64,000 nt of DNA from an uncultured Chloroflexia bacterium. Its GTDB lineage: Bacteria; Chloroflexota; Limnocylindria; QHBO01. Below the pieces are notes generated by a model, which was not told the DNA's origin, did no database searches, and was given only the letters and a program-made list of their open reading frames with translations. The DNA lies in the NCBI GenBank assembly GCA_963814375.1, contig CAWFCQ010000005.1:160001-224000 (forward strand), read 5' to 3'. The position numbers and the translations under genes are program-made. Below are positions 16,576-27,867 of this stretch, one piece after another; within the stretch, counting starts at the first letter, position 1; the number at the start of each line of letters is the position of its first letter.

Positions 16576-17956
16576 TCAGTCCTCTCCGCAGACCTCGGAG
16601 TCGGAGCAATGGACGACGATGCCATTCACGATCGTGGCGATGACTTCCATCCCCCGGATCTCGTCGGGAGTGGCGTCGAGCACGTCGCCGGAGAGGATGG
16701 TGACGTCGCCGAGCGTGCCTGGGGCCAGGTGGCCGCGTCGCTCTTCGTCGCCGAGGGCGTATGCAGCGTCCACGGTTGCGGCGCGCAGGCCCTCCTCCGC
16801 GGTCAGGAGCTGATCGGTCATCCACTCCGGGGTCTCCGGGAACGCCCGACCACGACCGTCCATGCCGCCCGCGATCTGATCCACGGGCCGGCCGATGTCA
16901 TCGGTCAGGACGAAGTCCGGGAAGAACCATGGCGCGTCGGTTGCCCCGGCGACGTGCAGGCCGGCGTCTACGAAGTCCCTCCAGCGGCCGAGCCAGCCGA
17001 TCTGTCCGGACGGGTAGTCGGCGCCACGGCCCATGTAGTCATTCCACAGGACCCAGTCGACCGTGCCGCCGTCGGGGTGGACGACGGGGACCAGGTCCAT
17101 GGCGACCATGCGATCGAGCTGGGCGTCGGAAACCTCGAGGGCGTGGTCGATCCGGTGGTGGAGCGGGTTCGGGCCCGTGGAGCCGATGGCCGCCTCGAAC
17201 GCGTCGAGGGCCAGATCCTCGGCCTCGGTGCTGACCGTGTGGACCGAGACCTGCCAGCCCGCCTCGTCCGCGCGGCCGATGGTCGACGTCAGGTCGGCGG
17301 GCTCCCAGTTGATGATCTCGCCCGCACCATCGTCGAGATGGATCTTGAGCCCCTGGACGCGCAAGTGGTCGCCCACCGAGCCGCGCTCGTGGTCGGCGTA
17401 CCAGTCGCCGAAGAACTCGTCGCCGAAGTTCAGGGCGAGATAGGCGTCGACATGAATCGGGAGGCCGTCGGCAGCGGCGAGGGCCGTGAGCTCATCGAGG
17501 CGCTCCGGGTTGACCCACTGCTCGGCGATCGAGGTCCAGCCGCGGCTGACGGCCGCCTCCATGGCTTCCTCCGGTGAGTCGAGGCCGTAGTAGTCGCGGT
17601 CCCCGATCCAGTGCGCATGCGCGTCGATGAATCCCGGGTAGGCAACGCCCGAGCCGATGTCGACGACCGGCACCTCGTCGCCGGCCAGCGCCATCACCTC
17701 GTCCCGCGTGCCGATGCAGGTCACGAGGCCCGCTTCGATGAGGAGCGCCTCCGCAACGGCCGGATCGTCCATCGTCACGATCCTGCCCACGAGGACGAGG
17801 CTGCCTCCCTCGGAATCGGTGGCGCTGGCGGCGTCAGTGGGTGCCGGGGAGGCTCGCGCCGGAGCAGGAGGGCGACGCGGCCGTGCCTGGAGCGCAGGCC
17901 GTCGCCACGAGAGCAACGGCCAGGAGCAGGGGCGCGATGACGAACGGCGGGTTCAC
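16576..17956 (-). CDS. Amidohydrolase-3 family lipoprotein (frameshift near 17870)
   Basis: PGFIDAHAH, KIHLDDG, SVHTV, HRIDHA, GATDAP, RGHLAPG. GTG 17956 after AAAGGA encodes MNPPFVIAPLLLAVALVATAC (lipobox) in a different frame from the body. Confidence 0.85.
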
Positions 17957-18049
17957 GCAGACCGATTCCTTTCGAGGTAGTCAACCGTACGGAGCCGGCG
18001 GGTCGGATCCCTCGTCAGGCAGCCCGGGCGGAACCGACCTCGCATCACT

Positions 18050-18082
18050 GAGAGCGTCCGACGGGAGCGGTTTTGTTCAATC
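18050..18082 (-). promoter_or_regulatory. ECF-type promoter upstream of the amidohydrolase
   Basis: GATTGAAC-aaaaccgctcccgtcgga-CGCTCTC, matching the motifs upstream of sigma genes 1 and 3. Confidence 0.65.
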
Positions 18083-18094
18083 CCGGGCGAGAGA

Positions 18095-18128
18095 GCGGGC
18101 GGCCGTCGAGGCCGCCCGCGCATCGGTT
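18095..18128 (-). terminator. Conserved cassette terminator, copy 1
   Basis: Plus strand GCGGGCGGCC-gtcga-GGCCGCCCGC-GCATCGGTT, repeated after each anti-sigma gene. Confidence 0.7.
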
Positions 18129-18134
18129 TGGATC

Positions 18135-18945
18135 GCAGCGGCTCGAGGATGGAGCTCGGGCCTCGACGGCGTCCTCGGGATGCAGTTGCACCGTGGCGAG
18201 GACCTCCTCGAACCATGCCCTGTCGTAGGGAGCGACGGCGAGTGGGTCGTCGCCAGCCGTATAGAGCTGGATCCAGTAGCCGCGGCCAGCGGTTGTGACG
18301 ACCGCCACGTTGCAGTCGTCGGCCGATCAGTCCGGTGCCGCCGTCGACGGTGATCGGCTCGGTCGTCGTGCACCCCTCGTCGCTCGCCATCTGCTCGGGC
18401 GACCCAATCCTCGGGCGTGGAATCGCCGATCGGCTGCGAGGCGATGGCCAGGAACAGGTCGTGCGTCAGGATCGGGTCGTGCGAGCCAGTCGGCATGGGG
18501 CGCCGCAAAGACGAGGGGAAACGTGCTATCCGTCCAGGGCCGGTCGCCGCTTGAGCGGTCCATCCCTCGGGGTACGACAGTGAGATCCCGTGCTGCGTCG
18601 AGGTGAAGCTCTGGGTCAGCGGCGGAGCGGATGCGGGCGGCGACGCGGATGGTTCGGGCGTGGCGGTCGGCTCAGGGCGTCGGCGGTCGGCTGAGAGCCC
18701 ACTCCACCGCTCGGCGAACCGAACAGCTGTGCGCCAACGAAGAGGAGGACGACCACGGCGGCAGCGCCAAGGCCGATGGTGACGATCTTGTTCATCTCGG
18801 GAAGCCTCCACGGGCCGATGACGACCCGTTGTCCTGTCTGTTCAGTGCGATCGCGAACCGCGTCGAACGACTCGTAGGGCAGCTCGTCCGGGCCGTCCCG
18901 AAGGAAGTCGTTGAGCTGTCGATCGAGGTCGTCGTGCGCGGTCAT
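18135..18945 (-). CDS. Putative membrane anti-sigma factor 1 (about 5 frameshifts; 3' end approximate)
   Basis: MTAHDDLDRQLNDFLRDGP...PWRLPEMNKIVTIGLGAAAVVV, Pro-rich linker, then an ectodomain (FTSTQHGISLSYPEGW...GRGYWIQLY...VLATVQLHPEDA) spread over several frames. ATGA overlap with the sigma gene. Confidence 0.7.
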
Positions 18946-19496
18946 GCCATTCGCTCCTGGGATGTCGGGGGCGTCCGAGCCTCGGCATCGAGGCTGGCCC
19001 GGAGCGCCCGCTTGGCGTGGTGCATGCGGGACTTCACGGTCCCGAGGGGGATACCGATGCGAACCGCCACCTCGGGCAGCGGAAGCCCGAGGTAGTGGTG
19101 GAAGACCAGGACGGCGCGCTGCTGGACGGTGAGCCGTCGGAAGGCACGCTCGAGCTGGTCTCGGTTGTCGACGTTCGCGTACTCGTCAGGCCCGTGCACG
19201 GGCTCGACGGAGAGGACTCGGATGCCCTCCGACCACTGCCGGCGACGCTTTGCCTCTGCGTAGCAGGCGTTGGTCAGGATCCGGTGGAGCCATGGCTCGA
19301 AGCGCTGGGGGTCCCGCAGGGTGCGAAGTTCGCGCCAGGCGGTCAGCAGGGCCGATTGGACGGCGTCGTCAGCAAGGGCGAAATCGCGAAGGATCCTGAA
19401 CGCGATCGCCATGCATCGGTCGCCGGTCAGGCGCGCCAAGGAATCGAAGGCCTCTCGATCGCCTCGCTTCGCCTGCTCGACCAGCTCTGCGTGCAC
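18942..19496 (-). CDS. ECF RNA polymerase sigma factor 1
   Basis: LVEQAKRGDREAF, DAVQSALLTAW, FEPWLHRI, region 4 EVA...GIPLGTVKSRMH. GTG start after GGAGG. Confidence 0.93.
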   Translation of the reverse strand: MHAELVEQAKRGDREAFDSLARLTGDRCMAIAFRILRDFALADDAVQSALLTAWRELRTLRDPQRFEPWLHRILTNACYAEAKRRRQWSEGIRVLSVEPVHGPDEYANVDNRDQLERAFRRLTVQQRAVLVFHHYLGLPLPEVAVRIGIPLGTVKSRMHHAKRALRASLDAEARTPPTSQERMA

Positions 19497-19551
19497 CCAC
19501 CCCTCCATCCATGGGGTTGCTGTCGCGCCCGATCTGAGCGTGATCGGACTG

Positions 19552-19582
19552 GAGAGTCCGGGGGCAGCCTATCGGTTCAATC
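19552..19582 (-). promoter_or_regulatory. ECF-type promoter of sigma 1
   Basis: GATTGAAC-cgataggctgcccccgga-CTCTC on the minus strand. Confidence 0.65.
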
Positions 19583-19596
19583 CTGGCAAGAGAAAG

Positions 19597-19630
19597 GCGG
19601 GCGGCCAGCCTGGCCGCCCGCGCATCGGTT
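19597..19630 (-). terminator. Conserved cassette terminator, copy 2
   Basis: Plus strand GCGGGCGGCCA-gcc-TGGCCGCCCGC-GCATCGGTT, followed on the minus strand by CTTTCTCTT. Confidence 0.75.
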
Positions 19631-19644
19631 CCGGGTCGGATCGG

Positions 19645-20612
19645 TCAGGGCGCCTCGAAGGTGGCCGACTCTGCGAGGGTCCGCAGCTCTTCGACGAGGT
19701 CGCCCGGCGTCGCCGGGCCGTACATCGCGTCGAGGATCACGATCGATCCGTCCACGTCGAGGATCCACAGCTCGTCGATCTGGCCCGGTCCTTGGTGGTT
19801 CCGCACCACGGCCTTCGCCTCGGTTCCGTAGCTGACGAACTGGTTCTCATCGCAATCGGCGAACTCTTCCTCCCGCGTCGCGTTTGGCAAATCGAACGTC
19901 ATCGGAACCTGGAGCGTGATCGTCTTGCCGGCGAACCCGCCCACGGTGACGTCTTCGGGCGCGGTCGCGGTCTCGTCGCCCGGCCGGCCAGCCAAGGCCT
20001 CTGCGATCTCGTCGGGCGTGGTGGCGGGCGACTCGGGGATGCCTGTGGTCCACTGGCACGGATCTCCGTACACGTTGAACCCTGTCCCGGCTGGCCATGC
20101 CCACCCGAGCAACGCAGCGCCGACAGTTTCTGGCGGGTCCAGGCCGTCGTCGTCCTTGCTAACGCGCATCGAATTCTGCAATGCGAACCATCCGGACGAC
20201 GCGATGTCGACCGTGATCTCCACGGCGTCAGCGCGTCGCCAGTGACGACGAACGGGCCCTGGGGCAGACCACCCCCGGCCGACGGCGTCGGACTCGGCTC
20301 CTGCGTCGGCTCCGGGGTTGCGCTGGCGGTCGGGTCAGCGCCCACACCGCCAGGGTCACCCGGCGAACTGAGAAGCTGGGCGCCAAGAAGAAGGACCACG
20401 ACCACGGCGGCAGCGCCGAGGCCGATGGTGACGAACTTGTTCATCTCGGGGAACCTCCGCGCCGGCCACCAGGTGGCGCGGCGCTGTGGGGTCGTTTCCG
20501 CCAGGTCCAGCACCGCCCCCGCGATGCGGGAGACGTCCTCGTGCCGATCCTCGTGGAGCCACGACCGGATGGCGCGGTTGACGTCCCGGTCGGAGGTCTT
20601 GAAATCGGTCAT
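19645..20612 (-). CDS. Putative membrane anti-sigma factor 2 (frameshift near 20228)
   Basis: ORFs 19899..20612 and 19645..20223. Cytoplasmic N-domain, MNKFVTIGLGAAAVVVV TM, Pro linker, ectodomain VYGDPCQW...HQGPGQIDELWILDVDG...ESATFEAP. ATGA overlap. Confidence 0.8.
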
Positions 20613-21157
20613 CGAGCCACCTCCCGGGGCGTCGGCTGCGCGTCGGCGATGAGCGTCGAGCGCAGCTGCCGCGTCGCGTAATGCAATCTCGATCCCACCG
20701 TCCCGAGCGGCGCGCCGACGATGTCGGCGACCCGGTCGAGCGGCAGGTCCAGGTAGTGGTGCAGGACCACCACCGTCCGATGGTTCAGGGAAAGACTCCG
20801 AAAGGCACGCTCGAGCTGGTCGCGATCGACGACCGCGCTCGTGCCGTCGACCACCATCGGTTCGTCAACCGACAGCAGCCTCAGGTTCGGCGCCCAACGG
20901 CGGGACTTCCGGCCCTCGGCGTAGCAGGCGCGCACGAGGAGCCGATACGACCAGGCCTCGAAGCGGGCCGGGTCACGAAGCTGGGGAAGGTTCTGCCAGA
21001 CACCCAGCAGCGCCTGCTGCGTGGCGTCCTCGGCCAGGCCGATGTCGCTCAGGATCCGGTGCGACACCGCCAGGAACCGATCCGCGATGGCATAGACCAG
21101 GTCGGCAAATGCCTCCTGGTCGCCGCCCTGTGCACGTGTCACGAGATCGGGGTTCAT
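20609..21157 (-). CDS. ECF RNA polymerase sigma factor 2
   Basis: LVTRAQGGDQEAF, EDATQQALL, FEAWSYRLL, region 4 GAPLGTVGSRLHYA. Confidence 0.93.
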   Translation of the reverse strand: MNPDLVTRAQGGDQEAFADLVYAIADRFLAVSHRILSDIGLAEDATQQALLGVWQNLPQLRDPARFEAWSYRLLVRACYAEGRKSRRWAPNLRLLSVDEPMVVDGTSAVVDRDQLERAFRSLSLNHRTVVVLHHYLDLPLDRVADIVGAPLGTVGSRLHYATRQLRSTLIADAQPTPREVAR

Positions 21158-21206
21158 GTCCCTTCCAACGTTTACGGCGTCGGTTCAGACCGACGCTACA
21201 TCCGGT

Positions 21207-21236
21207 ATGGGCGAGATCCGGCCGGCTTTTTTCAAA
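21207..21236 (-). promoter_or_regulatory. Variant ECF-type promoter of sigma 2
   Basis: TTTGAAA-aaagccggccggatct-CGCCCAT, in the equivalent position to the other promoters. Confidence 0.45.
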
Positions 21237-21352
21237 TGGGTCGCAAGCAGCTCGTCAGCGCGCGGCCTGGCCGCTTGGCGGGCAGGTATTCTGCCGTCCT
21301 ATCCGCGGCGCCGTGGCGCCTGTGTGGCCACCCGAGCACGAGGACACACGCC

Positions 21353-21898
21353 GTGACGTCAGATCGCCGGACCGCGTCCCAAGCCTTCGTCGTGCTACTC
21401 CTCGCGGTGGTCGTCGCGGGTTGCGGGACCACGCTCGAGCCTTCGCCTTCGCTTTCGCCTTCGACGAGAGATGGCATGGCCGTCACGGATCTGTCCGCGA
21501 TTGGATGCGCCGGGAACGATCCCGCAGACGAGGGCGAGCTGACGGGTGCCTGGGCGGGGAATGACACTGGCACGTACTACATCCGCCACGTCGGCGACTG
21601 CGTCTGGTGGTTCGGGACCGAGGTGAGAGATATCGCACCCGGTGCAACCGGCCAGCGAGGATTTGCGAACGTCGCCAGCGGGCGCATCGTTGGCACCCAG
21701 GTCGACCTCGAGTGGGCTGACGTTCCACTTGGGAGCACCGTCAACGGCGGGGGCCTCACGTTCATCTACGACGAAGAGCGCGGCGAGCTGACGCTCGCGG
21801 AGCAACGAGGCGGGATACCGTTCGGTGGCACGGTGCTCACTCGCATCGACCCGTCCGCGAGTCCCGCCGCGAGCCCGAGTCCGTCGGCAAGCCCATAG
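21353..21898 (+). CDS. Lipoprotein of unknown function
   Basis: GAGGA RBS, GTG start, lipobox VVAGC, LTGAWAGNDTGTYYIRHVGDCVWWFG, Ser/Pro-rich ends. Confidence 0.8.
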   Translation: MTSDRRTASQAFVVLLLAVVVAGCGTTLEPSPSLSPSTRDGMAVTDLSAIGCAGNDPADEGELTGAWAGNDTGTYYIRHVGDCVWWFGTEVRDIAPGATGQRGFANVASGRIVGTQVDLEWADVPLGSTVNGGGLTFIYDEERGELTLAEQRGGIPFGGTVLTRIDPSASPAASPSPSASP

Positions 21899-21911
21899 GC
21901 GGTCAAACGAC

Positions 21912-21944
21912 GCGGGCGGCTGGCGGGCCGCCCGCGCATCGGTT
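21912..21944. terminator. Conserved cassette terminator, copy 3 (between convergent genes)
   Basis: GCGGGCGGC-tggcgg-GCCGCCCGC-GCATCGGTT. Confidence 0.7.
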
Positions 21945-21959
21945 CCGGGTCGCGATCGG

Positions 21960-22872
21960 TCAGGGCGTCTCGAATGTGGCCGACTCGACCATGGCCCGCA
22001 TCTCCTCCACGTCCTCGGCCGGCGTGTCCGGGAAGTAGCCGGCGTCGAAGAAGACGAGCGTGCCGTCGACGTCGACGACCCACACCTCGTCGATCTGGCC
22101 CGGTCCCTGGTGGAAGCGGGGAGCTTCGTCGCCCGAGCTCGACACCTCGAGCAGGGTGCGGAACTCGCCACCGTCGCAGTCGGTGAAGACCGCGTCCTCC
22201 GGGACGTGAAGGGTGAGCATCTTCCCGGGATGCCCGCCCACGGTCACGTCGACCGGCTCGGTGGCGTCCCGCGAGGCCTGGGCCGACAGGGCAGCGACCA
22301 ACTCATCCAGCGAGGCGGCCGGCTCGGCCGGCCGGGTCGACTCCCACGCGCACGGGTCCCCATAGACCAGCATGTCCCCGCCATAGACGATGAGCCCGGC
22401 ACCCTCCGGCGGGCCCTCAACTCCGTGCTTCACGACGTTCGTGTTGTAGTCAAGCCCGTGCCAATCGGGCGCCGAGATGGTAACGGTCGTTCGCACTCCG
22501 AAGAGCATTTCGTTGACGAGGACGAACGGCCCTTCGGGTAGGGGGCCAGCCGTCGGCTCCGCAGACTCCGGAGGGGTCGGCGTCGGATTGGGCGTGGCGG
22601 TGGCGGTTGGCTGGCCGCCCACTCCGCTCGGGTCCCCGGGCGAATTGAGAAGCTGAGCGCCGACGATCAGGACCACGACCACGGCAGCAGCGCCGAGGCC
22701 GATGGTCACGAACTTGTTCATGATGGGCGTCCTCCACGGGCCGATGAAGACCCGCTGTTTCTTGTGCTTCAATCTCGGCACGAACCGCGTCGTAGACCTG
22801 GTCATGCAGCTGCTCCTCGCCCTCGTTGAGGAAGGCGCTGATCAGGCGGTCGGGATCTCGTGAGGCGGTCAT
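21960..22872 (-). CDS. Putative membrane anti-sigma factor 3 (frameshift near 22768)
   Basis: ORFs 22450..22872 and 21960..22805. MTASRDPDRLISAFL...PWRTPIMNKFVTIGLGAAAVVVV, ectodomain VYGDPCAW...HQGPGQIDEVWVVDVDG...ESATFETP. ATGA overlap. Confidence 0.8.
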
Positions 22873-23423
22873 GCCAATCGCTCCTGGGAAGGCGGGGTGC
22901 CCCGGGAGTCAGCGTCGATGCTGGCCCGGAGCGCCCGCGTTGCGTGGTGCAAGCGGGACTTCGCAGTCCCGACGGGAATTCCGATTCGTGCCGCCACCTC
23001 GGACGTCGAGAGCCCGAGGTAGTGGTGGAACACCAGGACGGCGCGCTGCTGGATGGTGAGCCTCCTGAAGGCCCGCTCGAGCAGGTCGCGGTCGTCCACG
23101 GTCAGGTAGTCGTCGGAGCCGTACGCGCCCTCGACGGGGAGGATCCTCGGGCCCTCGTACCACCGCTTGCGACGCCTGGCCTCGGCATAGCACGCGTTGG
23201 TGAGGATGCGGTGGAGCCACGGTTCGAAGCGGGACGGGTCGCGCAGGGCTCGGAGCTCGGTCCAGGCCGTGATCAGGGCGGACTGGACGGCGTCCTCGGC
23301 CAGGTCGATGTCGCGGAGGATCCGCACCGCGATCGCCAGGCATCGGTCGCCCACCATCCGCGCCAGGGAGTCGAACGCTTCCGCGTCGCCCTGCCGCGCC
23401 TGGCGGACCAGCTCTTCCTGCAC
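22869..23423 (-). CDS. ECF RNA polymerase sigma factor 3
   Basis: LVRQARQGDAEAF, EDAVQSALITAW, FEPWLHRI, GIPVGTAKSRLH. GGAGG RBS. Confidence 0.93.
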   Translation of the reverse strand: MQEELVRQARQGDAEAFDSLARMVGDRCLAIAVRILRDIDLAEDAVQSALITAWTELRALRDPSRFEPWLHRILTNACYAEARRRKRWYEGPRILPVEGAYGSDDYLTVDDRDLLERAFRRLTIQQRAVLVFHHYLGLSTSEVAARIGIPVGTAKSRLHHATRALRASIDADSRGTPPSQERLA

Positions 23424-23474
23424 TCATCCCTCCACACCCGTGGCTGTCGGCCCATTGGTGGACCGATCACCATT

Positions 23475-23506
23475 GAGAGCGTTCGAGGGAGCCTAACTGT
23501 TCAATC
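23475..23506 (-). promoter_or_regulatory. ECF-type promoter of sigma 3
   Basis: GATTGAAC-agttaggctccctcgaa-CGCTCTC on the minus strand. Confidence 0.65.
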
Positions 23507-23512
23507 TGGCCC

Positions 23513-23866
23513 TCAGCCGGGCGGCCAAGCCATCGGTCTACCGCCGAGCAGGTGGAGGTGCAGGTGGAAGACGGTCTGGCCTGCCTCCGGACCGACATTC
23601 GTCACCAATCGGTAGCCGTTCTTCAGCCCGCCCTCGTCAGCGATGCGACGGGCGGCGGCGAACAGCGAGGAGAGGATCGGCCCGTCTTCGTCGGTGAGCG
23701 CGTGCGCGTCGGGAATGTGACGACGCGGGATCACCAGGACGTGCGTCGGCGCGCGTGGGTTGATGTCCCGGAACGCGATGACCTCGGCATCCTCGAAGAC
23801 GCGGTCCGACGAGATCTCGCCCGCCACGATCTGGCAGAAGAGGCAGTCCGGGTCGCGGTCGGTCAT
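23513..23866 (-). CDS. Histidine triad (HIT) nucleotide-binding protein
   Basis: DCLFCQIV, AFRDINPRAPTHVLVIP, GQTVFHLHLHLLGGR. Confidence 0.95.
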   Translation of the reverse strand: MTDRDPDCLFCQIVAGEISSDRVFEDAEVIAFRDINPRAPTHVLVIPRRHIPDAHALTDEDGPILSSLFAAARRIADEGGLKNGYRLVTNVGPEAGQTVFHLHLHLLGGRPMAWPPG

Positions 23867-25132: not shown

Positions 25133-25823
25133 CTAGGCGAAGTCGCCGGTCCGCGACAGGATCACGGCCGCGGCCGCCACCGCCACCGTCTCCGATCGCA
25201 GGATCCGCGGGCCCAGGCCGGCGAGGGTGGCCCCGGAGCTCGTGGCGAGGTCGATCTCGGAGGGTGAGAAGCCGCCCTCCGGGCCGATGATCAGCGTCGA
25301 GGGCGGCGGCAGCGACCCGAGCCGCGCGCCACGGTGGCGCTCGAAGAGGACGACCGCCGCCGGACCGAGGAGGGCCGTCAGCGGCACCGGCGCCTCGACG
25401 TCCGGGACGACCCCGCGCTCCGACTGCTCCGCCGCCTCGCGCGCGATCGCGCCGAGCCGGTCCAGGCGGCGCTGCGAGACGTCGCGCGCCACCGCCCGCT
25501 CGGTGGCGACCAGCTGGAAGCGGGCGACTCCCATCTCGGTCCCGTGCCTGACCACCCACTCGAGCGCCTCGCCCTTGAGCAGCGCCTGCGCCACGGTGAG
25601 CCGATGCGACGGCTCGCTCGGCGCGACGCCGCGCTCCTCGACGACACAGTCGCCACCATCGAGCCGGCAAGTCGCCTGCGAGCCGTCGTTCGGCAGGAGG
25701 ACGATCCGATCTCCGTCGCCGAGCCGAAGCACGGTGCGCACCTGGCGCGCGATCCGCTCGGGAAGCGGAAAGCGGTCCCGACTCCATCTCGTTCGGCGAT
25801 ACGAAGAACCGATGCACGGTCAT
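25133..25823 (-). CDS. rsmE: 16S rRNA m3U1498 methyltransferase RsmE (frameshifted near 25770)
   Basis: MTVHRFFV...VLRL...TEMGV...EAAEQSER...IGPEGGFS...LGPRILRSET. Confidence 0.92.
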
Positions 25824-26728
25824 AGGGCGTGCTCCAGCGCGAGCGCGACCCACTCGCCGTCGTCGCGTCGGTTCGCGACGTCCAGGCCGGCGTCGCGCAT
25901 CGCTGCGATGACCTCGCTCGCGCGGCTCTCGATGATCCCGCCCGCCAGCAGCGTTCCGCCGGGCGCGAGCCGAGCGGCCAGGTCTGGGGCCGCCGCGATG
26001 AGCACCGCCGCGACGAGGTTCGCGACGATGAGCGGGTGGCGATCGCGGCCCGCCGCCTCGATCGGTGCCGTGCTGGACGGTGAATCTGGGCCGCGAGCCC
26101 GTTCAGCTCGGCGTTTGCCCTCGAGGCCTCGACGGCGAGCGGATCGGTATCCACGCCGACCGCCCGGCCGGCGCCGAGCCGCAGGGCCGCCAGGGCGAGG
26201 ATCCCCGAGCCACAGCCGACGTCGAGAAGCCGCTCGGGCGGAGCGACCTCCTGGAGCATCTCGAGGCATGCGCGGGTCGTCGGGTGCAGGCCGGTGCCGA
26301 ACGCCATTCCCGGATCGAGCGTGACGGCCACCTCGTCCGGCGCGAGCGGCTCGTCGACCCATGACGGCACGATCACGACGCGGCCGATGCGCTGGGCGAC
26401 GTAGTGGTCCTTCCAGGCATCGGTCCAGTCGGCGTCGTCCACCGGCCGGACCCGCAGCTCGCCGACCGGGCGCAGGCCGAAGGCCTGGAGGTGCCACAGC
26501 GCCCGCTCGGTGGAGTCGACCGCGCCGGTGGCGGCCGCGTCGTCGTTGATGTGGGCGGTGACAACGAACGGCGCGGTCGGATCCTGCCGCGCGACGAGCT
26601 CGTCGTCCTCGTCGCGAATCAACCGCGTCGGCTGGACGGCGGTACCTGCCGGCGACGCGGCCGAGGATCTCGGATACGGCCTCGACGGCCTCGACATCGG
26701 CCTCGACACTGAGCTCGAGCCAGCGCAT
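25820..26728 (-). CDS. prmA: Ribosomal protein L11 methyltransferase (compensating frameshifts near 26650 and 26085)
   Basis: MRWLELSVEAD; DWTDAWKDHY; LDPGMAFGTGLHPTT; LDVGCGSGILA; IVANL; GGII. Confidence 0.93.
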   Translation of the reverse strand: MRWLELSVEADVEAVEAVSEILGRVAGRYRRPADAVDSRRGRRARRAAGSDRAVRCHRPHQRRRGRHRRGRLHRAGAVAPPGLRPAPGRRAAGPAGGRRRLDRCLEGPLRRPAHRPRRDRAVMGRRAARAGRGGRHARSGNGVRHRPAPDDPRMPRDAPGGRSARAASRRRLWLGDPRPGGPAARRRPGGRRGYRSARRRGLEGKRRAERARGPDSPSSTAPIEAAGRDRHPLIVANLVAAVLIAAAPDLAARLAPGGTLLAGGIIESRASEVIAAMRDAGLDVANRRDDGEWVALALEHAL

Positions 26729-26739
26729 CGGCTCTGTGA

Positions 26740-27867
26740 TCAGCCGAACAGGTCGCGCAGCCGGTCGAAGACCGAGGGCCCGCCCTTCGGCAGCACCGCC
26801 GGCTCGCTCACCTCGCCGAGCTCGCGCAACAGCTCGCGCTCGCGCCGGCTCAGCTTCGAGGGCACGACGACGTTGACGACCACGTGGAGGTCGCCGCGAC
26901 CCGCGCCGCGCAGCCGTGGGACGCCCTTGCCCTTGACGCGGATCTCGTGGCCCGACTGGGCGCCGGCGGGGACCTCGACCTCCTCGCTGCCCTCGACCGT
27001 CGGAACGGTCAGGGTCGCTCCCAGCGCGGCCTGTGGGAAGGTGATCGGCAGCTCGTGGTAGAGCTCGGTGCCGCGCCGGGCGAGCTCCGGATGGTCGCGG
27101 ACGGAGACCGCGACATAGAGGTCCCCGTTCGGGCCACCCCGCGGCCCTGCCTCGCCCATTGCCTCGATAGCGATGCGCTGGCCGTCGTCGATCCCGGCCG
27201 GGATGGTGACCTGGAGCGTCCGCTCGTCGTTCACCCGGCCATCGCCACTGCAGCGCGTGCAGGGGGTCGCGATGATGCGGCCCTCGCCGCGGCACCGCGA
27301 GCACGCGACGATGTTCACCATCTGGCCCAGGATCGTCTGCGCCACTCGCCGCTGCTCTCCGCTGCCGTTGCACTCGGGACAGGTCTCCGGCTCCGTCCCG
27401 GGCTCGCCGCCCGCTCCGTCGCATCGGTCACACGTCACCAGCGTCGGGAAGCTGATCTCGCGCGTGATTCCGAAGACCGCCTCGGCGAACTCGATGGTCA
27501 GGTCGTAGCGCAGGTCGGCGCCGGGAACGACCCGCTGGCGACGGCGCGCTCCCGCCGGCGATCCCCCGAAGAAGGCGTCGAAGATGTCGCCGAACGGGCC
27601 GAAGCCACCGCCGAAGCCCTCGAACCCGCCGGCCGCCGAGCCCTCGACGCCCGCGTGCCCGAACATGTCGTATGCGCTGCGGCGCTGCCGATCCGAGAGG
27701 ACGCGGTACGCCTCGTTGAGCTCCTTGAAGCGCTGCTCGGCGCCGTCGCCGGCGTCGACATCGGGGTGGTGCTGCTGCGCGAGCTTGCGGAAGGCGCGCT
27801 TGATCTCAGCCTCGTCGGCGTCGCGAGGCACCCCGAGCACATCGTAGTAGTCGCGCTTCACGGCCAT
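26740..27867 (-). CDS. dnaJ: Chaperone DnaJ
   Basis: KRDYYDVLGV, HPD motif, G/F region, four CxxCxGxG repeats. Confidence 0.97.
   Translation of the reverse strand: MAVKRDYYDVLGVPRDADEAEIKRAFRKLAQQHHPDVDAGDGAEQRFKELNEAYRVLSDRQRRSAYDMFGHAGVEGSAAGGFEGFGGGFGPFGDIFDAFFGGSPAGARRRQRVVPGADLRYDLTIEFAEAVFGITREISFPTLVTCDRCDGAGGEPGTEPETCPECNGSGEQRRVAQTILGQMVNIVACSRCRGEGRIIATPCTRCSGDGRVNDERTLQVTIPAGIDDGQRIAIEAMGEAGPRGGPNGDLYVAVSVRDHPELARRGTELYHELPITFPQAALGATLTVPTVEGSEEVEVPAGAQSGHEIRVKGKGVPRLRGAGRGDLHVVVNVVVPSKLSRRERELLRELGEVSEPAVLPKGGPSVFDRLRDLFG

Follow-up and report, generated by a model that had tools for sequence, protein, structure and literature searches.

Conserved Shine-Dalgarno sequences and start codons inside anti-sigma factor genes of Candidatus Limnocylindria point to a probable membrane-anchored isoform

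Gene pairs and the internal motif

We analyzed a window of 64,000 nucleotides (contig C5:160001-224000) from a genome of 2.52 Mb, with 70% G+C and 8 contigs, that belongs to Candidatus Limnocylindria (Chloroflexota). Between 18.0 and 23.5 kb the minus strand of this window carries three pairs of genes for a sigma factor and a putative anti-sigma factor, and each anti-sigma gene contains an internal Shine-Dalgarno (SD) sequence with a start codon behind it. The first gene of every pair encodes an extracytoplasmic function (ECF) sigma factor with sigma-70 regions 2 and 4 only (Pfam Sigma70_r2 together with Sigma70_r4 or r4_2, in all three pairs). The second gene is laid out as an N-terminal part of ~50 residues, a hydrophobic helix, a linker rich in Pro and Thr and a C-terminal domain of ~200 residues. 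The stop codon of the sigma gene overlaps the anti-sigma start as ATGA in copy 1, an arrangement that is also seen in 100 of 116 homologues.

The internal signal reads GGAGG-N9-ATG and is located on the minus strand at 18793-18809, 20442-20458 and 22719-22735. In codons, it consists of TGG AGG or CGG AGG, three variable codons and then ATG AAC AAG, and the peptides that start at the internal ATG begin with MNKIVTIGLGAAAVVV or MNKFVTIGLGAAAVVV. An earlier sequence-only reading of this DNA had reported GGAGG 9 nt ahead of an in-frame ATG in all three genes. Its coordinates and spacing are exact, whereas the frame does not hold for copy 3, where a 1-nt indel places the ATG out of frame with the N-terminal part. 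The change of the preceding codon that it described (TGG AGG in copies 1 and 3, CGG AGG in copy 2) is seen as stated. It had also taken AGG to be a rare codon, which the genome bears out: across 808 long open reading frames (ORFs) with high G+C at third codon positions, AGG makes up 614 of 19,939 Arg codons (3.1%).

Three further sigma/anti-sigma pairs were found with tblastn on contig C7 (83001-94000, minus strand, locus L001), with the peptide motif ..WWPARR.PEMNN... All six paralogues of the genome read NGG AGG N9 ATG AAC AA, and R53 and M57 are invariant among them. In one of the six copies the intervening residues are Thr-Ala-Thr and not x-Pro-Glu, with the motif kept. In the inner halves of 931 long ORFs, GGAGG stands at a spacing of 9 before an in-frame ATG or GTG in 2 of 10,176 cases; its placement and codon phase are rare, and AGG is the codon required for this phase. 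The 3' end of the 16S rRNA of this genome reads GGATCACCTCCTTTCT (canonical: CACCTCCTTTCT), to which GGAGG is complementary, and GGAGG is enriched at spacings of 4-10 ahead of candidate starts (5' zones of long ORFs against inner zones). Given the canonical 16S end and this enrichment, the organism uses SD sequences. In Table 1 we list the features of the locus.

Table 1. Features of the three sigma/anti-sigma gene pairs, in window coordinates
Feature	Position	Strand	Evidence or remark
ECF sigma factor gene, pair 1	18942..19508	-	Pfam Sigma70_r2 4.9e-12, Sigma70_r4_2 4e-14; stop overlaps anti-sigma start as ATGA
Anti-sigma gene 1: putative sigma-binding N-terminal part, membrane helix, start of linker	18616..18945	-	ORF; hidden Markov model 5.4e-37; no Pfam family
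Anti-sigma gene 1, frame break	~18690	-	ORF list; ectodomain carries on in the frame of ORF 18077-18811
Internal Shine-Dalgarno GGAGG, gene 1 (TGG AGG)	18805..18809	-	pattern read from the sequence
Internal in-frame ATG, gene 1, 9 nt past GGAGG	18793..18795	-	peptide begins MNKIVTIGLGAAAVVV
Predicted membrane helix, gene 1 (IVTIGLGAAAVVVLLFVGAQLF)	18721..18786	-	sequence read; model of homologue P0002
ECF sigma factor gene, pair 2	20609..21157	-	Pfam Sigma70_r2 and r4; chain 1 of the predicted complex
Anti-sigma gene 2	19899..20612	-	frame break ~20220; ectodomain carries on in ORF 19645-20223
Internal Shine-Dalgarno GGAGG, gene 2 (CGG AGG)	20454..20458	-	
Internal in-frame ATG, gene 2	20442..20444	-	peptide begins MNKFVTIGLGAAAVVVV
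Predicted hairpin abutting the 5' side of the internal Shine-Dalgarno, gene 2 (GCGCCG ... CGGCGC)	20459..20484	-	prediction
Terminator-like hairpin with T-rich tail, right after gene 2	19597..19621	-	11 pairs (10 G-C)
ECF sigma factor gene, pair 3	22869..23423	-	Pfam Sigma70_r2, r4_2, Sigma70_ECF
Anti-sigma gene 3, putative sigma-binding N-terminal part	22760..22872	-	out of frame with the remainder; in frame in homologues P0002 and P0075
Internal Shine-Dalgarno GGAGG, gene 3 (TGG AGG)	22731..22735	-	
Putative short-isoform reading frame, gene 3, from internal ATG (22719-22721) to stop	21960..22721	-	253 aa, intact here

Frame breaks in the assembly

The reading frames of the anti-sigma genes are interrupted in this assembly. 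In copy 3 the indel near 22757-22760 separates the frame of the internal ATG from the N-terminal sigma-binding part, and copies 1 and 2 are shifted farther downstream, near 18690 and 20220. Frameshifts are present, at differing places, in all six paralogues (window 18077-22872; C7:83001-94000), and prmA (25378-27424) is broken twice. We read these shifts as probable assembly indels because the matches in other genomes have open frames, free of stops; judged from these sequences, they are probably errors of the assembly and not marks of pseudogenes. Programmed ribosomal frameshifting was considered as well and rejected: the sequence that follows the SD (NNN NNN NNN ATG AAC AAG) holds no slippery motif of the form X XXY YYZ, and in the six copies the shifts are far away from it and differ in position.

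Distribution and conservation of the signal

Homologues were collected with a profile of the N-terminal part and the helix. The profile matched 24 of 41 relatives (one unpublished genome included) and 135 of 301 genomes of the class (five unpublished genomes included), among them 82/103 in family f1, 51/91 in f3 and 1/92 in f2. Among 401 genomes drawn from the phylum, matches were obtained in families f1 and f3 alone (0/361 elsewhere). Some genomes have expanded the family in tandem, with 12-16 matches each (e.g. loci L061-L065; genomes G016, G008 and G103). In this way 166 loci were collected, and three loci of unpublished genomes were removed from the later codon and context counts.

The final tally comprises 177 distinct contexts, all of published genomes, from two families of Candidatus Limnocylindria, with GGAGG sought 4-11 nt before the start. 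The full signal consists of GGAGG before an in-frame ATG in 118 contexts, before GTG in 8 and before TTG in 4. A four-base SD precedes ATG in another 15, a start codon without SD is found in 10, and 22 have no start codon. As for the distance between GGAGG and the start, which the sequence-only reading had proposed to compare among homologues, it is 9 nt in 122 of 130 rows (6 nt in 4, 7 nt in 2 and 8 nt in 2). The share of homologues with the full signal drops with profile distance, from 87/96 at E<1e-30 to 22/31 at E<1e-20, 20/38 at E<1e-10 and 1/12 among weaker matches (1e-10 to 1e-5). In the divergent homologue L020, GGAGG is found 15 nt ahead of its ATG.

Selection on nucleotides

To separate nucleotide constraint from protein constraint we used a codon control of 143 aligned rows, with the codon usage of the genome as background. 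In the column whose Arg codon forms part of the SD, the 127 Arg rows contain AGG 117 times, AGA 7 times and CGN only 3 times; free use of CGN at this column had been named by the sequence-only reading as the outcome that would speak for mere duplication. Control Arg columns of equal conservation show AGG in 1/132 rows at codon -13, 0/108 at -44 and 0/93 at -48 (counted from the internal Met), with all four CGN codons in use, and among the remaining Arg codons of the aligned part AGG amounts to 3.3% (n=939). The G statistic for synonymous codon choice is 807 for the SD column, against 246 for the runner-up. One codon earlier, Arg is written CGG in 65 of 71 rows (background 27%), and TGG (Trp) is the alternative; as the aligned codons read, this alternation at -5 between two chemically unlike residues preserves the two Gs.

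The neighboring codons have turned over (Pro at -2, for instance, is written CCC 50, CCT 11, CCA 9 and CCG 9 times), so the constancy of these nucleotides is not merely a matter of recent descent. The start codon behaves in a similar manner. Where the SD is present, replacements in the Met column are GTG or TTG only (in the genome, GTG accounts for 35.8% of Val codons and TTG for 1.7% of Leu codons), and in rows with CTG, CTC, TTA, GCG or similar at this column the SD is mostly gone too. Four divergent rows build GGAGG in another codon phase and from other amino acids, e.g. CTG GAG GGA or GGA GGA. As far as an alignment can tell, a protein motif does not explain such phase-shifted copies, while a selected ribosome-binding site with its start codon does. 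The second codon begins with A nearly always (AAC 99, AGC 13 and AAT 5 in 130 rows).

On this comparative evidence we take SD, spacing and start codon to be under selection as nucleotides. The sequence-only reading had proposed nucleotide selection from the codon change in front of AGG; the codon control, the GTG and TTG replacements and the phase-shifted GGAGG of four rows all agree with it, and the replacements of the start and the rebuilding of GGAGG in another phase go beyond what had been noted.

Odd synonymous choices are also found in columns at codons -42 to -40, -18 to -15 and -51 to -49 from the internal Met, with GTT at 50% (background 4%), CGG at 86% (27%), TCG at 90% (41%) and CCA at 77% (6%). 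The ACC CCA or ACC TCA at these columns could pair with the SD, and no covariation is seen. Sequestration of the SD by an upstream ACCCC/ACCTC was also evaluated: 72% of the alignment cells are paired, again without covariation.

Initiation context

In 103 sequences, both the G+C content (0.58) and the predicted local structure are at their lowest right around the internal ATG, and the start region is predicted to be slightly more open than its synonymous randomizations (mean z +0.51). For comparison, the primary starts of the same genes are preceded by GGAGG in 56/116 and by a four-base SD in 42/116 cases, mostly at a spacing of 7-8. With such signals at both places, the gene has two comparable initiation modules.

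Predicted protein products

To describe the intact protein we modeled P0002, a homologue that shares 80% identity with copy 3, with AlphaFold2 (98-row alignment, mean per-residue confidence (pLDDT) 83). In the model, residues 7-17 and 25-36 form two helices, and confidence is low at 38-58, where the motif lies; then come a helix at 54-74, the linker and a confident domain at 116-310, in which nearly every block of 10 residues has a pLDDT >90. The predicted membrane helix comes directly after the internal Met. In the window, the short frame of gene 3 encodes the membrane helix, the Pro/Thr-rich linker and the ectodomain, and is matched by 1431 database proteins at E <= 1e-5.

Pfam assigned no family to any of the six window pieces of the anti-sigma genes. 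Among 55 full-length homologues, 53 were without any family and none had one in the N-terminal part; the described anti-sigma families (zf-HC2, RskA and others) were likewise without an N-terminal match in these pieces and homologues. The outside domains of the divergent homologues L114 and L020 belong to SBP_bac_3 (E 7.5e-28) and the Kelch beta-propeller (E 1e-48). Since the homologues carry SBP_bac_3, Kelch or Pfam-less domains, the N-terminal module is joined to different ectodomains, and this variety, as far as the domain assignments go, is as expected of sensors.

For the ectodomain of P0002, Foldseek returned weak similarity to LpqN, PsbP, MTC28 and DcrB (E from 1.5e-4). The modeled domain shows at best a weak resemblance to the PsbP/Mog1/LpqN fold, with 6e5d (LpqN) at E 1.5e-4 and a target TM-score of 0.51, 3lyd_A at 5.8e-4 and 0.61, and root-mean-square deviations of 6-10 Å; over all matches to this fold (PsbP entries and MTC28 included) E ranges from 1.5e-4 to 5e-3 at target TM-scores of ~0.5-0.6. 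It differs in that identity is 9-14% and Pfam finds no match; the similarity is weak and no function is transferable.

The sigma factor of copy 2 and residues 1-56 of its partner were predicted as a complex with an interface score (ipSAE) of 0.84, against 0.01 for the best of 3 controls; the mark used for this score is reached by 58 of 80 solved complexes and by 2 of 110 mismatched pairs. Prediction runs agree in at least 85% of the contacts, with a partner pLDDT of at least 74, and place partner residues 6-47 against sigma residues 10-61 and 112-169 (regions 2 and 4). ECF sigma/anti-sigma complexes have been solved, and the score may reflect likeness to these, which is why we take the complex as support for sigma binding and treat that binding as a prediction. 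All predicted contacts lie upstream of Met57, and a product that starts there would for this reason be without means to bind sigma, in line with the shorter product lacking the sigma-binding domain that the sequence-only reading had put forward.

Of the best 120 database relatives, ~20 seem by their length to be called from about the internal Met. Ten of 11 short relatives that were inspected begin exactly at this Met, some of them on contigs of 4.2 and 11.3 kb. Database proteins called in this way are P0013, P0015, P0024, P0032, P0047, P0058, P0062, P0072 and P0089, with 248-256 aa against ~300-312 aa for the full length. Another database protein, P0025, is related to the ectodomain and carries a signal peptide of lipoprotein type (..LASC..). 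It has neither the sigma-binding part nor the helix of the family and is a natural stand-alone form.

A probable second start within the anti-sigma gene

We consider it likely, from the comparison of these genes, that the motif is a true in-frame internal start, from which an isoform is made that lacks the sigma-binding domain and carries the ectodomain on its membrane anchor. As purely comparative arguments go, the one for a functional internal start is strong. The full gene product would be a single-pass anti-sigma factor, with ~50 cytoplasmic residues that bind sigma, a membrane helix, the Pro/Thr-rich linker and ~200 extracytoplasmic residues. Translation from the first start, the ATG that overlaps the sigma stop, would give this full-length protein and couple it to the synthesis of sigma. 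The second start, GGAGG-N9-ATG, lies at the junction of the sigma-binding part and the membrane helix. The short protein made from it would begin with fMet-Asn-Lys, have almost no cytoplasmic part, and keep the same helix as an anchor and the same ectodomain outside.

Several observations weigh against this interpretation. First, the feature is not universal (22/177 contexts are without a start and 10/177 have a start without SD) and fades with divergence; as the signal is absent in some homologues, the architecture can work without it. Second, the homologues are a mixture of paralogues and orthologues and not independent of each other, and the counts therefore exceed the number of events. Third, the bare count of GGAGG-N9-ATG in the window is at chance level (4 against 2.96 expected, with at least 4 in 34/100 shuffles); what goes beyond chance is the place of the motif and its codon phase, not its count. 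Fourth, the SD is partly paired in the structure prediction (mean unpaired probability 0.28), at the foot of a stable hairpin, and this could limit initiation. This predicted pairing would count somewhat against strong constitutive initiation, and could leave room for coupling to upstream translation; besides, ribosomes that come from the primary start traverse the internal site. Finally, if the frame breaks were real, these very three copies of the window may be non-functional.

What an isoform of this kind would do is a more tentative matter; the sequence-only reading had named a decoy, a co-receptor or an effector. Being unable to retain sigma, it possibly serves as surplus ectodomain, which competes or partners with the full-length sensor for the triggering ligand or protease. 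Such a surplus would set a threshold or damp the response, by buffering the signal or the protease that frees sigma. ECF operons are commonly auto-induced by their own sigma factor; if this operon is, induction would raise the level of the short form, which could then exert negative feedback.

We regard it as rather doubtful that the roles are instead reversed, with the short form as a working membrane-anchored envelope protein of PsbP/LpqN-like type and the long form as a sentinel copy tethered to its own sigma factor. Damage, binding or degradation of the ectodomain outside would then destroy the sentinel and free sigma, upon which the operon would be transcribed and the internal start would refill the pool. 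Sensor and effector would thus be one polypeptide made from two starts, and the many paralogous pairs would act as parallel homeostats for different ectodomains.

Alternative explanations

Among the explanations that do without a second product, an elongation pause survives best, even though we consider it unlikely. The SD-like sequence would stall ribosomes after the sigma-binding part, and thereby aid folding, capture of sigma or membrane targeting, with a single protein as the outcome. Its position suits such a role, with the SD at a domain boundary and sigma made just upstream on the same mRNA. Internal SD-like sequences have indeed been proposed as pause sites, but pausing at these sites in vivo is disputed, which weakens the explanation. 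Moreover, a pause needs no start codon, yet ATG, GTG or TTG follows in 130 contexts and the replacements are alternative starts. Targeting would gain nothing either, as the membrane helix is unmade at that point.

It is very unlikely that the conserved nucleotides are an RNA element with another role (a structured RNA, or a site for a protein or small RNA in mRNA stability or processing) beside which the ATG is incidental. In its favor is a hairpin directly 5' of the SD, formed by alignment columns 24-29 with 50-55: 93% of its cells are paired, 4 of 6 pairs have changed on both sides, and its covariation score was reached by 0/500 shuffles. In addition, the Pro and Ala codons at -7 and -6, which stand opposite the C of Arg codons, have G in the third position in 91% and 100% of cases. 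However, the hairpin is no more stable than synonymous randomizations (-18.07 against -17.14 kcal/mol, mean z -0.27), for which reason we dropped it as a selected element, and RNAalifold found no consensus structure in a 105-row alignment. The outer helix that would cover the SD is without covariation, and by far the strongest constraint is on GGAGG and the start codon and not on the stem.

Still less credit is given to a leftover of gene fusion, in which a small cytoplasmic anti-sigma gene was joined to a gene for a membrane protein and the SD and start of the latter are decaying relics. Stand-alone ectodomains such as P0025 do exist, and divergent members have lost SD, start or both, as decay would have it. 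Nonetheless, a relic would not keep a 3% codon in 117/127 rows over two families amid synonymous turnover, nor would it be rebuilt in another codon phase.

Least probable of all is a juxtamembrane peptide W/R-R-x-P-x-M-N kept for the protein, with DNA that is alike through recent duplication or gene conversion: between the SD and the end of the membrane helix the DNA of the three copies in the window hardly differs, and the Arg and Met of this peptide do not vary in the six copies, but the codon control largely refutes shared descent as far as sequences can, given the turnover of neighboring codons (Pro at -2, Arg at -13 with its four CGN codons) in a pattern that spans two taxonomic families, and a protein motif is at odds with three varying residues between SD and Met, an Arg/Trp swap at -5 that keeps GG, and an SD built from other amino acids in another phase in four rows.

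Relation to known systems

In-frame internal starts that yield N-terminally truncated proteoforms are established in bacteria. The closest example, from the passages on ArcB in Meydan et al. (10.1101/520783), is ArcB-C of E. coli. In this membrane sensor kinase an SD-like sequence and a GUG mark a domain boundary and are conserved among other species, and translation from there yields the output domain as a soluble cytoplasmic protein, as evidenced by ribosome profiling and western blot. As far as these passages describe it, the present case is similar in that the ORF of a membrane signaling protein contains an SD-like sequence with a start codon, conserved and exactly at a domain boundary, with a detached part of the sensor as the putative product. 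It is different in that the putative short form would retain the helix with the domain outside and be without the cytoplasmic output part, and in being proposed from sequence. A full-text literature search, in which supplementary tables are not covered, returned no report of an anti-sigma factor with an internal start. The term sigma occurs three times in a review from 2026 on N-terminal proteoforms of bacteria (PMC13515050), and of these the two passages inspected deal with sigma-S.

The gene pairs resemble ECF sigma factors with single-pass anti-sigma factors of the RseA/RsiW type in their sigma regions 2 and 4, the ATGA-coupled next gene, and the build of the anti-sigma protein, in which a cytoplasmic N-terminal part that is predicted to bind sigma is followed by a single membrane helix and a domain outside the cytoplasm. 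They deviate in the small size of the sigma-binding part (~50 residues, with two modeled helices and no Pfam anti-sigma family), in the second conserved start, and in an N-terminal module that is seen only in two families of one class (0/361 among the other genomes of the phylum that were searched). Sigma regulators of the FecR type cleave themselves into an N-domain and a C-domain. There, as here, one gene would account for a part that controls sigma and for another, separate part in the periplasm or membrane; however, this is achieved by post-translational cleavage of one chain, whereas the second start would add an outside part beside the full-length chain.

Anti-sigma factors are treated as single products that do nothing but retain sigma until a signal brings about their destruction. 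If the second start is real, a sigma-blind isoform from the same gene adds a built-in competitor or partner to the sigma switch, and provides a clean bacterial case of one gene with two proteins, divided at the domain boundary of a signaling protein. For annotation it matters that public gene calls beginning at the internal Met miss the sigma-binding part. The family would also be a good test case for finding internal starts from sequence in uncultured phyla because the comparative signal is unusually clear: a 3% codon in >90% of rows, replacements by start codons only, and an SD rebuilt in another phase.

Transcription and further observations on the locus

The terminator-like hairpin past gene 2 suggests, as a feature read from the sequence, that each sigma/anti-sigma pair is its own transcription unit. 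A scan of 17900-23700 for promoters of the sigma-70 type found none, which carries little weight as ECF promoters are outside the coverage of such a scan. Six metatranscriptome sequencing runs contained only 5-9% of the sampled words; the contigs assembled from four of them are short, mostly 90-95% alike and mostly over the conserved sigma genes, and derive from relatives and not from the source organism. The outside domain of copy 1 (18077-18700, minus strand) has no paralogue in the genome by tblastn, unlike the ectodomains of copies 2 and 3, which share 43% identity.

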